From: Cladosporium halotolerans | Taxonomy: Eukaryota | Direction: 5' to 3' | Length of the DNA stretch: 64,000 nt | Assembly (NCBI RefSeq): GCF_011745625.1 | Contig: NW_027191510.1 | Location: 1-64,000 of the forward strand | Shown here: piece after piece, positions 27,353 through 42,420 of the stretch | How positions within the stretch are numbered: the first letter of the stretch is position 1 | Layout of the letters: every line of letters starts with the position of its first letter | The notes under the pieces: generated by a model | What the model saw: only the letters and a program-made list of their open reading frames with translations | What the model was told of the DNA's origin: nothing | Databases searched by the model: none | Translations under genes and position numbers: made by a program

Positions 27353-28928
27353 TCACCACGGCATCCTCGCATTCCTCCACAACCACACACTCCCAATCGC
27401 CGTCGCACTGATGGTGAAGGTGAGTATCAAGCCAGCGTTCATCAAGAAACCCTGCTCGAAGAAGCCTAGAACAAAAGAAGTCAGCCCGCAATGTCCACGG
27501 TGAAGAAACGCAAGTACAGAAAGCCATACCGACACCACCGCCAGGCTTCCTCTTCATGGCCTTCAGAGGCCCAAGAGCCTGCTTCAACACCTTCTGGACC
27601 GCAACACTGTCGCTAGCCGCCAGCTGCGCCGCAAGAGAAGCAGAGGAGGGCTGGACGTTGGCGAAACCGGGTCGCGCCCAAGAGAACATGTCCGGCGTGT
27701 ACCTCGCAGAAAGTTCAAGAGCATGGGTCGCAGGATACGCTGGGCCGACCAGCAGGCCTCGAGGGACATGATTGATGAAGGATGCTCGCGCGTCAATGAA
27801 CTGCGCCAGGTACTTCCCGACAGCCGGCGTTCCAAAGTGATAAGCTGCGAGCGCAGCGCCGCTGCTTGTGTTTCCGATCAGGTCAATCGCATCGTCCAGG
27901 CTCTTGACGGGAATGACTTTCATGATGGATGCTTCGTCCTTGGTCGACAACGCTTGTGCCTCTCTGGCACTCAGCTCCGCGACCGCTGCTTTCGCTTCCT
28001 GGACGACGATCTGAACCCTCGGGTCGACCTTCTTGAGCGCCTGCAGCTGCTCGTCCAGCTTATTCGCACCGCCAGCCTTGCCCTCCCTTGACCTCGTCCC
28101 GGTCCTGCCCTCGCGACACCCGTCAACAACAGCCTGCAGGAAAGCCTGCTTCACAAACTCATTCACCAGCACCAAATCCGGAGCATAAGGGCTCGTCCCG
28201 CCGAACGCGAACCTCGCCGCGACAAGCTCCTTAGCAGCAAGCTTGACGTCCGCTGTTCGATCCACGACAGCGACCGTGCCGCTCCGTGCTAGCGAAGCGA
28301 GATGGTTGAGGCGCGGCCAGGTCTCAGAGCTGTTCTGGTCGACGAAGATTGATGAACTGAGAATATTGGGGTCACTGACGGGCGAAGAAGCGATGGCAAA
28401 TGTGTCTGGGTGGAGACTGGATTGAAGGGCCTGGCGGAGGATGCTGGGTAGACGCTTGAGGCTGTTCTCGAGCTGTGGCTTTAGTCAGTAAGGCGAGACA
28501 AGTCGGAAGAGTGTGAGAAGACGGTTACTCACCAGCACAATCACGCAATTGCCAGCAGCGAGGGCGGCACTCAGCGGCACGGCCGTCGAGAAGAGCAGCG
28601 TGTGCGCACAAGGCTCGATGTACACGATGCCTGCCGGCTGGCGACTGCCCGGCGCATCGCTGCCATTCGCGAGTAGGTATTCATCCTCCAGGGCTTTCGC
28701 GGGCTGCAGAGAAGCGTAGTCTCGCTTGATCGCTTCCAAGGTAAGATTGATCTCTGCTGCGACTTCTGCTGGTGAGTAATTGTAGTCGAAAGAGAGTGCT
28801 TCCTTGATCTCTTGCGCCGCGCCGATAAGTGTCTGGTGCAGCTTTTCGATTTGCGATTGCCGGTAATAGATGTTGTGTGCTCGCCCGTCGATCGCGGCGG
28901 CGCGGAGGTTGGCGAATGCTGCAGGCAT
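27353..28928 (-). CDS. Aldehyde-dehydrogenase-fold protein lacking the catalytic Cys, with C-terminal TM anchor; introns 28473-28532 and 27466-27529
   Basis: ALAAGNCVIV, APDLVLV, SLDDAIDLI and LAAYHF motifs of the ALDH3-like fold; FGGTSPYAPD in place of NAGQxCxAPD; hydrophobic C-terminal tail. Confidence 0.85.
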
Positions 28929-29140
28929 TGTGTCGAGGCCGATTGCCTCTTGAAGCAACGGACAATTGATGATATTGTAGCCGTTCTTGACGTGAAGCAA
29001 CGGGAGAGGGAAGGCTTCAAGATCCAGTCCGACAAAGGTACAATTGTGGCAAAGATGCCGTCGACTAGCGAATGATCTTCACCCATCTCCTCATGGCTCT
29101 ATCAATGTATCTTCCGTCGCAATAGCATAACCCCACGGGG

Positions 29141-29152
29141 CGGTAAATGTGG
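29141..29152 (+). promoter_or_regulatory. CGG-N5-GTGG element in the divergent ALDH-like/small-gene promoter
   Basis: CGGTAAATGTGG; the same motif recurs in other cluster A promoters. Confidence 0.5.
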
Positions 29153-38768: not shown

Positions 38769-39323
38769 TCACTTCTTCTCGGAAGGCGGAACACCATCCA
38801 TTCCGACACCGTAGTCCTCGCCCAGAGCCTTCCCATCCATCTCGATCGGCTTCGACTCCTGCAAGACGTACATCATGCGTGCCCACCCAGTCGTGCTGAC
38901 GTTCTTCCAAGCATGGTTTGTTCCTCGCTGGATGGCAACATCCCCTCTCCGCATAAGGCGTGTCTCGCCAGAGTCCAGCACGAGCTCCACTTCGCCTTCA
39001 AGCACAACACCATAGTCTAGACTTACAGTGCGATGCATGGGAGATACGGACTGAGGCGGCACGTCGACGAAGCGCAGGACAGTACCGCCGGGGATGACGA
39101 GGCCGGGTGGCGTCTGTAAGTAGCTTTGGTAGACTGATACGTCTTTGTTCTGGTTCATGTCGACCGGGTATTGCTCCGTTGTATATCCGAGACTGAACTT
39201 CGCGCTGTTCGGCAGCGTGTGCCATGAGAGCTGCTCGGGGACGGAGTCGGAGAATGTGGCTTTGCCTTCGGCATTGTGGGTTGTGATGAAGCGGTGGATA
39301 GACGGGAGGCCGTGAGGTTCCAT
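38769..39323 (-). CDS. Cupin-domain protein (184 aa)
   Basis: SPMHRTVSLDYGVVLEGE and GDVAIQRGTNHAW cupin motifs; N-terminal RFITTHN. Confidence 0.92.
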   Translation of the reverse strand: MEPHGLPSIHRFITTHNAEGKATFSDSVPEQLSWHTLPNSAKFSLGYTTEQYPVDMNQNKDVSVYQSYLQTPPGLVIPGGTVLRFVDVPPQSVSPMHRTVSLDYGVVLEGEVELVLDSGETRLMRRGDVAIQRGTNHAWKNVSTTGWARMMYVLQESKPIEMDGKALGEDYGVGMDGVPPSEKK

Positions 39324-39524
39324 GATGGTATGAGATGTCGAACCAAGGTTGTAAGGTATTCGGTTGAGGATGGGATGTATAGTCGATTGATTTAATGGCG
39401 ATTAAATGGTCGGCGTCCCATAGATGTGGAGTACCAGGGAGGAGTAGGCGATGCCGGATGCTGTGTGCGGAATCGGAAGTATGTGGGCGCCAGTCGCTTC
39501 CGGACTCCCGCAGGGCACCTGAAT

Positions 39525-42420
39525 TCACGTCGACAAATTTCCAAGCTCGTCCAACAAGCTTGTCAAGTTCGCGACCAAAGGCGGCAGTCCTCCTTTTGTA
39601 TGGGGATAATTGGTCTTGAAGACGTCCGCTGCGGTCGCCATCAATTCTCGAGACTCGGACAATGAACAAAATTTCTCGGAAGCAGTGCTGGATCGGGCAT
39701 CTGGCATCTCATTCGGCGGTCTGAGCGCCCTTGTCAAACCAGGCGTGCCATGACCAACTTGAATGAACGCCTTGGTAGCTCGGTCCTCCGGCCGGTTTAA
39801 AGGCACCTTGGCCTGGGTGCGCGGCGTCCCCAGTGAGTGCTGTTGTGTCGACAAAGTAACCACGCCGCTATCGACGGGCGTTTGGAGACCGCTCTGTCGA
39901 CTTGTTCCAGATGTCACCATTCCCCAGACCCAGAGTGTCAAGGTTGCGTGGTAGATAGCAACAGCGTAAAAGTCCCTCAGGCGGGTCTTCTCAAAGCGCT
40001 GCGCATGGAAGAAGACTTGTCCAGCGTGCCACACGGCGCGCCGAGACTCTGCGTCTTGTGTCCATGTGCGAACGATCGGGTAAACCCTGCGCGCTTCAAC
40101 TTCACCAGATCTTCCGGCGAAGAGCTGAACATCATCTAATGAGACATGCAGGGACATCATGAGGAACTCCAGTACGAACGAGATCTCGGGTGGTGTGTTC
40201 TCGTCTGTCTCGCAGTGCGTCAGGAAAGTCGTCAAGTCCTCGTATCTAAAGCTGTTAGCGATTGATAAATACTCCCCTGGCATTGAACTTACAGATCACG
40301 CCGTCTGCTCATGTGCGAGAGTCCTCTATCCCTGCGGCGCTTCTCTCCAGAACGCCGAAGAATCTGCGCCTGCTGCCGATACTCAAAGATTTCATGAGCC
40401 AAAGAATGAGCAATCAGCAGCTGACAAAGGCCTTTATCGGTATAGAATTGCACCTTGCCTAGCAGCTCCGGGTCGCCAAATAGTTCGACGAGTGATGGAA
40501 GGTCCTCCCTCGGTGTCGCTTCTTGCGCGAGGAAAGCACTCCTCCAAGCATGCGCATTTGGGGCTTGCCACAGCTCCCGCGAACAGGGTAATGGCAAAAG
40601 CATCTGCGCTGTGGCGATAAGAGGCGCTCTCATGTGGACAAGCATGGTCTGGGAGTCGTGAAGGAATGTGTGAAAGACCAAGCGTTTCCAGCCTTCTTGT
40701 TCTGACCACGTCCGCCATTTGCTCTCCAGTACTTCAGCAGAATCATCTTGGGCGGGATATACTGGCTTATATCGCGTTTTGGAAAAGGCGTTTGACCAGG
40801 CCAGCATGGTGACGGGAGGTTGCAGAAACGATGCGGCGATCTCGGTGGATCTCCGGAAGCCGCTCCAAACCCCGGTGTTGACCCACATCAGACTGGTGGT
40901 AACAGACTGCAGCTCCCTTGTCGTCGAGTTATCTCTCTCAAATTCGGAGGCAATGGCATATCGCACAACTTCTTGTAGAACCATGCCCATCTTCCAAATT
41001 GGTGGAAAGCTCACAAAAGCCGCTCCTCTCGCCGTCAAGGCCAGTAAGAGCTCTGTCCGAATCTTCTGCGGCTCAAAAGTAGGGATGTGAATGTGCGAGT
41101 CGATAGCGTAAGTGTCTTCGAGCAGTGAGACGTCGATCAGGTCCTCCAGAAGCCTTAGAGATGGAAAAGAAGGCATCTTCAGCTTATGTACTGTACATTG
41201 CGTGACGATACGGATCATCTGGTCTCGGTTGTTCTGATCCAAGGAGCAATGAAACACCTGGCGTGCGCCCGGACTGGTCAGCTGGTCGGCCGCATCGACT
41301 CTATCTTGATTAACGTTGAGATCCGCCATGTCTGAGAATGCGCCGACTCCACGTGGTGGTATCCAGCTGTTCCATGACCAAGGGGAGCGCTTAATGGCCT
41401 CGGATCTTGATCCTGCTTCTGAATTGGGCGTCCTGGTCGTCTTCTGCTGGGTTTGCGGCGACTCTATTTGTATGTCATTGAACGGCATGGGAGTCCAAGA
41501 AGCTGGGTTCTCAAGGAAGGAAAAGTCCAAGTCTGTTGCGTCGAAATACATGTCCTGGGTCAGATTTGACACATCCGGAGGTGCAACAATTGACTCGTGA
41601 GTGATACTGTCTCCGGCCCCAAACGGCATCATGATGTGCTCAAAAAATTCCGGGAATGCAGGGTCGAATGTCGAATGCCCGACATTGATTATTGGGTCTT
41701 GCATGAGGGGAGCGGCTACTGGCAGCTGTCCATTGCTTGCAAATGTAGGATCTGTGTGAGCTTCTGCTGCATTATCTGCGGCTTGGAGCCCATCGTAGGG
41801 CGGCAGAGCGAGACTGGTATCATCGTTGCCGTCACGGGCGGTAGAAGCTCTGCGCTCCTGCTCTTGGCGTTGCTCTGTCTCAACACAGGGTACATCTCTA
41901 GCTTTGCAGCGCTGCACCTAATCAGTAAACTTCATTTGATCATACAAAGGGAGTAAGGGAGAGATGCGACGGAAAGGTGAAGTGAATTGCGGTGGGAGAC
42001 TCGAGATCGTGATCGCTTGCGGGTGGAATTGCAGACAGACACGCATCCTCCGAAATAGGTAGAAGCATGCATCCGACACATCAGACAAGACAGGCTTACC
42101 TTGCACGGCCTATCCTCGTCGCACTTGGTCTTCGACTTAATACAAGCCTGACAAGCTTTCTCCGTCCGCCTACGAACCGACCGCTCACCTTGTGCGGCAT
42201 TCTCATGCGAAGATCGATGGCGATTCAGCAAATCAGCGCGGTTGAAACCCTTCCCACAGTCTGAGCACTTGTATGCCCGTTCATTGTCGTGCGACTTGAG
42301 ATGACGATTCAGGTGGTCCACGCGCTCATAGGTCCGATTGCAGACGAAGCATCTGTGTTCCTGTCGCGGTCGCTGCTCGGATGAGCCTTCGTCCGTCACC
42401 GCACTCTCTTCCGTTGCCAT
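39525..42420 (-). CDS. Transcription factor with two C2H2 fingers, a Zn(II)2Cys6 cluster and a fungal TF domain; introns 41912-42099 and 40246-40292
   Basis: CFVC..HLKSH and CSDC..HRSSH fingers; CQACIKSKTKCDEDRPCK|RCKARDVPC after splicing; HIHIPTF middle-homology segment. Confidence 0.92.

Follow-up and report, generated by a model that had tools for sequence, protein, structure and literature searches.

In bacteria, meta-cleavage of aromatic rings by dioxygenases of the LigB superfamily is represented by LigAB (4,5-cleavage of protocatechuate), GalA/DesB (gallate) and HpaD/HpcB (homoprotocatechuate). Among fungal clusters, that of oosporein contains a pair formed by a flavin monooxygenase (FMO) and a cupin (OpS4/OpS7), the nicotinate (hxn) cluster of Aspergillus includes the molybdenum hydroxylase HxnS together with HxnT, HxnM and HxnN, and some catabolic clusters are controlled by pseudoenzyme repressors such as QutR/Qa-1S and GaaX. 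LigB-type ring cleavage appears as uncharacterised in fungal catabolism in the accessible parts of two reports (PMC10512348, PMC12420386), the second of which states that a fungal clade of LigB proteins of the 3,4-dihydroxyphenylalanine (DOPA) type "warrants further investigation". This report describes a set of eight genes, including a LigB-type dioxygenase and an FMO fused to an acetoacetate decarboxylase (ADC)-like domain, that occupies positions 27353-42420 of a 64-kb stretch of the genome of Cladosporium halotolerans (contig NW_027191510.1, positions 1 to 64,000 of the forward strand; hereafter the window).

In order of position, the eight genes encode a protein derived from aldehyde dehydrogenases (ALDH) and here called pseudo-ALDH, a small orphan protein (orfX), the FMO-ADC fusion, a CocE/NonD-family serine hydrolase, the LigB-type dioxygenase, a transporter of the major facilitator superfamily (MFS), a small monocupin and a transcription factor (TF). 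Their homologues are linked in several classes of Pezizomycotina. We propose, giving the idea about even chances, that they constitute a conserved catabolic cluster of Pezizomycotina for a hydroxy-aromatic acid, or for an ester, amide or lactone of such an acid, in which the ring would be opened by extradiol cleavage.

Linkage of the gene set in Pezizomycotina

Metagenome contigs were searched with an alignment of FMO-ADC proteins, and the 80 loci kept, 26 of which carry at least 10 kb of flanking sequence (long loci), were then searched with the proteins of the window. At least one partner gene lies near the FMO-ADC gene in 20 of the 26 long loci and in 38 of the 80 overall, and several long loci hold five to seven of them. 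The pseudo-ALDH is found in 24 of the 80 loci (15 of the 26 long ones), orfX in 20 (9), CocE in 20 (13), the cupin in 13 (9) and LigB in 11 (11), while the MFS transporter and the TF are matched in 13 (9) and 10 (9), respectively, and those of their matches that are at 25-45% identity may include paralogues. A fumarylacetoacetase (FAH)-type gene is present in five loci, all of them long (5/80; 5/26). The controls taken from the window (NPP1, SDR, ECH, two PhyH, a Zn2Cys6 TF, a 554-amino acid open reading frame and FMN_dh) recur in none or one of the 80 loci, as does the control non-coding open reading frame (ORF) 29833-30198. The clustering of these genes is non-random.

In annotated genomes, FMO-ADC and LigB have consecutive accessions in four strains of Zymoseptoria tritici (e.g., XP_003851321/22), lie four locus tags apart in Fusarium graminearum (SNK03_010876/010880) and F. 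culmorum, and two to six tags apart in Elasticomyces (LTR50_005524/005522), Meristemomyces (LTR62_002118/002121; LTR08_002551/002555) and the Eurotiomycete Malbranchea cinnamomea (VTO42DRAFT_5961/5955). In Meristemomyces, Cercospora kikuchii and one species of Teratosphaeriaceae, the distance between orfX and FMO-ADC or LigB is four to five tags. Linkage by locus tags spans Dothideomycetes, Sordariomycetes and Eurotiomycetes, and the co-localisation that the first-pass annotation had proposed to check in other fungi is therefore seen in at least three classes. Taxa differ in the order of the genes but preserve the membership of the set, which argues for selection for clustering.

That the genes are neighbours without a common function, or that pseudo-ALDH and orfX form an unrelated module beside a smaller enzyme cluster, is highly improbable. 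This explanation draws on the observation that pseudo-ALDH and orfX, the commonest partners of FMO-ADC, sometimes occur without LigB, cupin or CocE (L012, L013, L018, L053), and on the unexplained role of the two proteins in the chemistry. Set against it are the recurrence over classes of a linkage that the control genes do not show, the retention of membership under shuffled order, and the gene models that annotators have merged, namely FMO-ADC with the cupin in Seiridium (888 amino acids) and LigB with a fumarylacetoacetase in Talaromyces marneffei.

The flanks of the long loci consist of unrelated housekeeping genes. Apart from the partner genes, only an SDR and a FAD_binding_4 protein recur as neighbours, in two loci each, and the SDR adjoins the cluster in L011 and L075. 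Homologues of the FAH-type gene (40-49% identity) lie at most 10 kb from FMO-ADC in L011, L037, L038, L046 and L057, so that the conserved unit can exceed positions 27353-42420. The limits drawn in the first-pass annotation are exact for the window, where the ALDH-like gene has its stop codon at 27353 and the TF gene its start codon at 42420, but they leave out a gene that joins the conserved set in five of the 26 long loci.

Pfam searches were run on stop-to-stop ORFs, 19 inside the cluster and 89 of at least 130 amino acids elsewhere in the window. Gene models were built from homologue N-termini and splice signals and then compared with contigs from public runs, of which X2, X7 and X12, which derive from relatives, are RNA-like and X1 is DNA-like. 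All the genes listed at the outset in the first-pass annotation are present and intact at the expected coordinates (eight in total, from models based on homologues, splicing and contigs), in a region of ordinary composition (GC 0.53-0.57), and the X1 contig, from a relative about 97% identical, has the eight in unchanged order. Nine introns with GT..AG borders are absent from the RNA-like contigs (one each in orfX, CocE, LigB and the ALDH-like gene, three in the MFS gene and two in the TF gene), which indicates that the intron-bearing genes are transcribed in these relatives.

Two divergent pairs had been claimed and both are present. The pseudo-ALDH and orfX genes share a bidirectional intergenic region of 403 bp (28929..29331), and FMO-ADC and CocE share one of 491 bp (32702..33192). 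The former pair is head-to-head in all 17 loci that have both genes, with start-to-start distances of 332-609 bp, and CocE is upstream of and divergent from FMO-ADC in 16 of the 20 loci that have both. No Pfam match to a polyketide synthase (PKS), non-ribosomal peptide synthetase (NRPS), terpene synthase or dimethylallyl tryptophan synthase (DMATS) was obtained in the 19 cluster ORFs, in the 89 ORFs outside it or among 114 ORFs of ten related loci; together with the TF encoded inside, this agrees with the earlier description of a compact, backbone-less cluster with its own regulator.

No 7- to 9-mer common to at least four of the six upstream regions of cluster genes was found. The 8-mer CACCCCAC, counted on either strand, is present in three of the six (28929-29331, 35100-35539 and 42380-42900), which hold three of its five occurrences in the window, against 0.19 expected. 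It could be a candidate C2H2-type site, the signal being weak as a post hoc pick among many k-mers.

The encoded proteins and their relatives

The FMO-ADC fusion (30545..32701, minus strand; ORF 30545-32722) is encoded by a single exon and has 718 amino acids with Pfam FAD_binding_3 and ADC domains, the group-A flavin monooxygenase covering approximately residues 1-430 and the ADC-like part approximately residues 450-718. The FMO part scores 66 bits against PF01494 (FAD_binding_3; cutoff 22), and its translation contains the three group-A fingerprints GAGIGG, GADGVHS and GDAAHP, the last of which is invariant in 19 of 19 sequences; on the basis of the profile and of the GxGxxG, DG and GD motifs it belongs to the group-A flavoprotein monooxygenases. 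No NCBIfam equivalog matched the FMO part at cutoff. Its nearest solved relatives are vanillate 1-hydroxylase (8x38, 4e-48), salicylate hydroxylase (5evy, 7.6e-37), 4-hydroxybenzoate 1-hydroxylase (8gsm, 8.5e-34) and the 6-hydroxynicotinate monooxygenase NicC (5eow, 1.4e-33), all four of which are decarboxylating ipso-hydroxylases.

The ADC part scores 60.7 bits against PF06314 (cutoff 29.8) and aligns with 3cmb (1.1e-15), for which we know of no function, in such a way that the Lys of ELGMPK falls on the Lys of GIPK. All 19 homologues compared have this Schiff-base Lys, which, together with the profile score, places the domain in the ADC family (PF06314). The superfamily includes true ADC, MppR, Sbi00515 and Swit_4259, and the classic ADC active-site peptide is ELSAYPKK, with a Lys-Lys pair. 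The corresponding sequence in the fusion is ELGMPKL, which lacks the pair of a true acetoacetate decarboxylase. Some homologues of the fusion are named "OpS4" by NCBI, and no published account of an FMO fused to an ADC domain was found in literature searches.

The LigB gene (35540..36474, plus strand; exons 35540..35543 and 35597..36474; ORF 35572-36474) encodes a class III extradiol dioxygenase of the DODA type with 293 amino acids. Its 4-nucleotide first exon was deduced from homologue N-termini and confirmed by the joint 35543>35597 in run X7. The protein scores 42.2 bits against PF02900 (cutoff 26.3), is related to DODA (8in2, 3.3e-13) and YgiD (2pw6, 4.2e-12), and keeps the aligned His residues of both structures in the motifs SHGS, AHWD, IHDTY and AVHN, which we take to be the metal-binding and catalytic residues. 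Profile score and aligned His place it among the LigB/class III extradiol dioxygenases. The YgiD equivalog NF007914 matches at 67 bits, far below its cutoff of 233, and LigB is for this reason not a 4,5-DOPA dioxygenase equivalog. It is 69-98% identical to its best 120 homologues.

The CocE/NonD-family serine hydrolase (33193..35044, plus strand; exons 33193..33386 and 33442..35044; ORF 33278-35044) has 598 amino acids with Pfam Peptidase_S15 and PepX_C domains, scores 177 bits against TIGR00976 (NCBIfam; cutoff 66.3) and finds its best structure in 3ib3 (9.5e-49), whose GVSYLAV aligns with the nucleophile motif GISYYAG. Its intron is spliced in X12, X2 and X7.

The small monocupin (38772..39323, minus strand; ORF 38769-39401) is encoded by a single exon, has 183 amino acids and scores 34.5 bits against Pfam Cupin_2 (cutoff 27.2). 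Its structural matches are 3es1 (7.2e-33) and 8x0u (7e-31); literature searches with the codes 8X0U, 8X0V and 3ES1 found no function for 3es1 or 8x0u. In metal-dependent cupin dioxygenases the consensus of motif 1 is HxH...E and that of motif 2 contains a His. Here motif 1 is MHRT..SLD and contains only one His, motif 2 is GTNHAW and contains its His, and a 2-His-1-carboxylate metal site is possible from these residues. SPMHRT.SLD and QR.T.H.W are invariant in nine fungal copies.

Bacterial loci with a homologue of the cupin (n = 80) have a group-A FMO within 8 kb in 29 cases and an ADC-like gene directly adjacent in two. In the latter, both alphaproteobacterial (L084:7135-8465 and L134:8001-10314), a stand-alone ADC-like gene abuts the cupin homologue, followed in L084 by Amidohydro_2, and the link between cupin and ADC therefore extends beyond fungi. 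In a conserved set of two Pseudomonas loci (L094 and L106, about 7100-11400) the cupin is flanked by an SDR on one side and by an FAH-family gene (FAA_hydro_N_2) on the other, with transporters nearby and an AraC regulator in L094. These bacterial contexts are mixed and name no pathway. The Pseudomonas set also holds an NAD-epimerase-like gene, a PF04199 cyclase-family gene in L106 and adjoining DUF1329/BNR/MMPL genes, plus DUF1302 in L094.

The MFS transporter (36679..38454, minus strand; exons 38454..38373, 38302..38052, 37999..36968 and 36915..36679, with approximate borders for the middle intron) has 533 amino acids and matches Pfam MFS_1 (ORF 36926-38014); its frame is open once spliced, and removal of all three of its introns is seen in X2, X7 or X12. 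The first-pass annotation had assigned it to uptake. A transporter is indeed present, but the NCBIfam models that it matches best are efflux families of the Bcr/CflA and DHA types, none of which reaches its cutoff, and uptake is for that reason not an obvious role.

The TF (39525..42420, minus strand; exons 42420..42100, 41911..40293 and 40245..39525; 886 amino acids) had been described as a dual-finger regulator, and two kinds of zinc finger are present. Two C2H2 fingers (Pfam zf-C2H2 twice; ORF 41932-42471) are followed by CX2CX6CX5CX2CX6C, of the Zn2Cys6 type, and by Fungal_trans (43.8 bits, cutoff 23; ORF 40289-41917), an arrangement that places the protein among the zinc-cluster/C2H2 TFs. 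The Cys6 pattern was read by pattern in the spliced product, as it is visible solely after removal of a 188-nucleotide intron; X2 and X7 show the splicing of this intron and of the other one. In the cluster-linked TFs of L057 (15104-15622) and L075 (5748-6185), Pfam Zn_clus is matched just upstream of Fungal_trans.

The pseudo-ALDH (27353..28928, minus strand; exons 28928..28533, 28472..27530 and 27465..27353; 483 amino acids) gives two Aldedh matches below threshold when its exons are tested singly (Pfam, ORF 27171-29078). A profile of 16 family members finds 6k0z (1.7e-31), ALDH3A1 (3sza, 2.5e-29) and FALDH (4qgk, 9.5e-25), from which its predicted fold is ALDH3-like. An active aldehyde dehydrogenase has a catalytic Cys and a general-base Glu, and the pseudo-ALDH has neither. 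The Cys column is Pro in the window (GGTSPYAPD), in 20 of the 22 orthologues from the loci (Ala and Ser in one each, Cys in none) and in 11 of 16 database representatives, again with no Cys, and the region of the ELGGK Glu is lost, the aligned residues being non-acidic. The pseudoenzyme status suggested in the first-pass annotation is thus upheld. In place of the active site stands a highly conserved ARF.F.G.SPYAPD, and the C-terminus consists of GFFEQG and a hydrophobic helix; this conservation indicates a pseudoenzyme under selection, not a decayed gene, and the hydrophobic tail probably serves as an anchor. The family has 359 representatives at E up to 1e-10, among which some true ALDHs are possibly counted. 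Intron 1 is spliced in X7, and the last intron was placed by tblastn with the homologue P0439 and its GT..AG borders. The pseudo-ALDH contig of run X2 (27208-29160) retains a 60-nucleotide intron that X7 removes.

The orfX protein (29332..29749, plus strand; exons 29332..29599 and 29652..29749; 121 amino acids) has the same sequence (100% identity) as P0357, which is annotated as hypothetical in C. halotolerans, and its intron is spliced in X12, X2 and X7. Among 17 family members the N-terminal MSVT.T.N, RVPA and WR and the C-terminal GGEW are invariant. The protein matches no family in Pfam or NCBIfam, its protein atlas scores are all below 0.8, and its predicted fold (mean pLDDT 57.7) consists of helices and disorder and is unfit for a fold search. 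We take the pseudo-ALDH and orfX, which do not catalyse aldehyde oxidation, to be a putative module for binding, scaffolding or sensing. The contig of the orfX transcript in run X2 (29225-30540) reaches as far as FMO-ADC, the convergent gene, at its 3' end. ORF 29833-30198, which lies towards the 3' end within the transcript of orfX and has no relatives in the loci, was rejected as a gene.

Directly downstream of the cluster a second group of genes occupies positions 43777-57416. It comprises a Zn2Cys6 TF (43777-45852, minus strand), two PhyH-type dioxygenases (46259-47258 and 55023-55751, minus strand), a second CocE/NonD paralogue (48145-49929, minus strand), a second MFS transporter (50721-52244, plus strand), the FAH-type gene (53006-54394, plus strand; Pfam FAA_hydrolase_N and FAA_hydrolase), which lies outside the eight-gene interval, and an enoyl-CoA hydratase (56493-57416, plus strand). 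The FAH type is the sole member of this group that recurs beside FMO-ADC elsewhere, and the gene of the window is a possible distant member of the pathway. Other ORFs of the window include an NPP1 necrosis-inducing protein (NLP) at 22098-23237 (minus strand; Pfam E 7e-60), which is near FMO-ADC in none of the 80 loci, and an open frame of about 553 amino acids at 57705-59366 (minus strand) with no Pfam family and no relatives in the fetched loci.

A possible route and its rivals

The chemistry, the order of the steps and the substrate are all inferred. In the route we favour, the CocE/NonD hydrolase would release an aromatic acid, and the FMO half of the fusion would hydroxylate it, probably with decarboxylation, since the closest solved FMO relatives decarboxylate, to give a catechol or a benzenetriol. 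The cupin would oxidise or isomerise this product or the next intermediate, and the DODA-type LigB would open the ring beside the hydroxyls by extradiol cleavage. The ADC-like half may then cut or decarboxylate the keto acid through its Schiff-base Lys, an FAH-type C-C hydrolase joining in many fungi. The TF would turn the gene set on, and the MFS protein would carry a substrate or product over the membrane. The catabolic flavour of this route is suggested by the FAH link, the broad and even phyletic spread, the context of the bacterial cupin homologues, the parallel with the tetrahydroxybenzene cluster discussed below and the SDR beside the cluster in two loci.

As to the substrate, FAH-type hydrolysis is the final step of the classic orcinol route of bacteria. 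With that route in mind, and given the "OpS4" names and the FMO and cupin pairs that act on benzenetriols in the accessible text of PMC5794859, our guess would be orsellinate or other resorcylic acids, together with the depsides of such acids. The plant aromatic or defence compound put forward in the first-pass annotation is likewise a guess; rock-inhabiting and halotolerant fungi also carry the genes.

A bolder version, in which this would be the first fungal LigB-type ring-cleavage pathway, with a bifunctional enzyme of a new kind that couples decarboxylative hydroxylation to Schiff-base C-C chemistry, and in which pseudo-ALDH and orfX would form a membrane sensor of the ring-fission aldehyde that controls the TF, in the way in which the AROM-derived repressors QutR, GaaX and TanX act on their activators, is a long shot.

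Several observations weigh against the catabolic proposal. In the ORFs of the window no Pfam match to the hydratase, aldolase or tautomerase of meta pathways was found, the cluster is without a working semialdehyde dehydrogenase, the ALDH-like protein being catalytically dead, and the invariant pairing of this protein with orfX is unexplained by the pathway that the first-pass annotation had drawn; as an enzyme, the pair fits neither the catabolic scheme nor its rivals. No reports of induction, knockout or enzyme assays were found for any gene of the set. The MFS protein is closer to efflux pumps than to known importers of aromatic acids, which suits export or detoxification at least equally. 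Six long loci are without partners; in L060, L061 and L067 the match covers the FMO part alone, and in L022, L023 and L069 it takes in part of the ADC region as well. LigB and FMO-ADC are on separate contigs in Baudoinia and Vermiconidia. The identity of LigB to named species (about 70-87%) exceeds that of FMO-ADC (47-68%), for example 87% vs. 67% in Zymoseptoria and 76% vs. 48% in Fusarium, and LigB is present in Aspergillus, Penicillium and Talaromyces, none of which is among the 120 FMO-ADC homologues listed; LigB may accordingly have a role wider than the cluster. In A. niger, a LigB-type gene is strongly induced in a tanX mutant and is dispensable on gallate, according to the accessible part of PMC10512348.

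Part of this counter-evidence, namely the exporter-like MFS protein, the lack of a semialdehyde dehydrogenase, hydratase and aldolase, the conservation of LigB and a preprint on an L-DOPA pigment, keeps biosynthesis and detoxification alive as rivals. A backbone-less biosynthesis would start from tyrosine, DOPA or a hydroxybenzoate, which would be hydroxylated and opened by the DODA-type enzyme, the product being re-cyclised or decarboxylated by the ADC domain and the cupin into a pyrone-, pyridine- or betalamic acid-like pigment or chelator and exported by the MFS protein. The ADC superfamily includes cyclising enzymes such as MppR, and FMO and cupin pairs also take part in the biosynthesis of patulin and oosporein. 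Such a pair also acts in the biosynthesis of terreic acid (PMC5794859, accessible text). The nearest relatives of the MFS protein (Bcr/CflA and DHA efflux families) point in the same direction, as does the DODA/YgiD type of LigB, whose known roles are biosynthetic in the accessible part of PMC12420386. Aspergillus sydowii requires LigB/DODA genes to make a violet pigment, and their products cleave L-DOPA in vitro, as far as the accessible part of that preprint goes (bioRxiv 10.1101/2024.12.13.628389). We nevertheless consider biosynthesis rather unlikely. A spread as wide and even as this over the classes of Pezizomycotina is seen more typically with catabolic clusters, five of the 26 long loci include a linked FAH-type C-C hydrolase, and the bacterial cupin homologues belong to operon-like sets that also contain transporters and, in the case of L094, an AraC regulator. 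No methyltransferase, P450 or acyltransferase is recurrent in the annotated loci (ten loci, 114 ORFs).

Detoxification, in which a toxic phenolic ester or lactone of plant, lichen or microbial origin would be hydrolysed, hydroxylated and ring-opened and the product pumped out, would use the same efflux-like transporter and a hydrolase of the family named after cocaine esterase, would need no complete lower pathway, which Pfam did not reveal in the ORFs of the window, and would be in keeping with plant pathogens among the carriers (Zymoseptoria, Colletotrichum, Fusarium). It appears clearly unlikely, as the genes are also found in rock-inhabiting, halotolerant and keratin-associated fungi (Friedmanniomyces, Hortaea, Malbranchea), the FAH link points towards assimilation and no toxic candidate substrate has been put forward.

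Should the catabolic proposal hold, it would add a central route for phenolics derived from plants, lichens or microbes. Whatever the chemistry, the fungal DOPA-type LigB clade gains a conserved genetic context in which five enzyme-like partners are accompanied by a transporter and a regulator, which makes the function of fungal LigB directly testable in tractable carrier species. No published description was found for three types of protein, namely the FMO-ADC fusion that occurs across Pezizomycotina, the family of ALDH3-derived pseudoenzymes and the small orphan always paired with the pseudoenzyme.

Comparison with described clusters

As far as the searches show, the cluster belongs to the fungal aromatic-compound gene clusters and its gene set is undescribed in the literature searched. 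The earlier statement that no characterised pathway has the same genes accords with this, and no mention of the Fusarium locus tags FGSG_04965-04973 was found either; these negatives apply to the literature outside supplementary tables, and transcriptome tables may mention the genes.

Two identities were tried and rejected. A LigB-FAH gene model from Talaromyces had prompted a comparison of LigB with hmgX of the tyrosine cluster; HmgX has 256 amino acids and no conserved domain in the accessible part of PMC3203155, and the LigB gene of Aspergillus fumigatus was judged to lie on another chromosome, which also disfavours this identity. The gallate/tannic acid pathway was discarded because the Aspergillus route, in the accessible parts of PMC10512348, PMC12388069 and PMC10832562, uses PhyA/GacA and DUF3500 and not LigB. 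According to the same sources, A. niger has 17 ring-cleavage dioxygenases and needs none of them on gallate.

The bacterial meta-cleavage pathways resemble the cluster in the use of a LigB-fold dioxygenase after a hydroxylase and, in the case of homoprotocatechuate, in the presence of an ALDH-family and an FAH-fold protein in the set. The fungal set differs from them in that its dioxygenase belongs to the DODA/YgiD branch and has no LigA subunit, its ALDH is dead, and no hydratase, aldolase or tautomerase is matched. With DODA and YgiD themselves (8in2, 2pw6), LigB shares the family, by Pfam and alignment, and the aligned His; the relationship is distant (E about 1e-13), and the 67 bits are to be set against an equivalog cutoff of 233. 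The ADC-like half is joined to its superfamily by the Pfam score above cutoff and the invariant Lys of E-x-G-x-P-K and set apart by the fusion to an FMO and by a Leu, instead of a second Lys, after the Schiff-base Lys.

Among fungal systems, the hxn cluster is alike only in the C2H2 and Fungal_trans architecture of its TF and in an FMO of the NicC-like class, and Pfam scans of the window revealed none of the domains of HxnS, HxnT, HxnM and HxnN. AtA and AtD of terreic acid provide a case in which a salicylate hydroxylase-like, decarboxylating FMO acts with a Cupin_2 protein in sequence (PMC5794859, accessible text); the terreic acid and oosporein clusters are otherwise unlike, being PKS-based and biosynthetic and without LigB, CocE or an ADC domain. 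The pseudo-ALDH has a counterpart of sorts in TanX, a non-catalytic protein with an enzyme fold that represses, and is encoded in or beside, a catabolic regulon together with its TF (PMC10512348, accessible text), and a regulatory role of the pseudo-ALDH may be hypothesised from this parallel. QutR, GaaX and TanX differ from it in that they are derived from AROM and not from ALDH3, are not tail-anchored and have no small partner.

A close parallel is the 1,2,3,5-tetrahydroxybenzene (gallate) cluster (Martins et al. 2023, PMC10832562). The differences from it are clear in the accessible text. Its ring cleavage is assigned to a DUF3500 protein, a domain that Pfam did not match in the ORFs of the window; the words LigB, extradiol, cupin and acetoacetate are absent from that text; no ADC fusion is described for its monooxygenase; and its short protein is described as having a conserved Ser near residue 64, whereas the only invariant Ser of orfX is residue 2. 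The two gene sets are nevertheless alike in being conserved in Ascomycota and in bringing together a salicylate hydroxylase-like decarboxylating FMO, a ring-cleavage protein, a short conserved protein without known domains, an FAH-like hydrolase, an MFS transporter and a TF.

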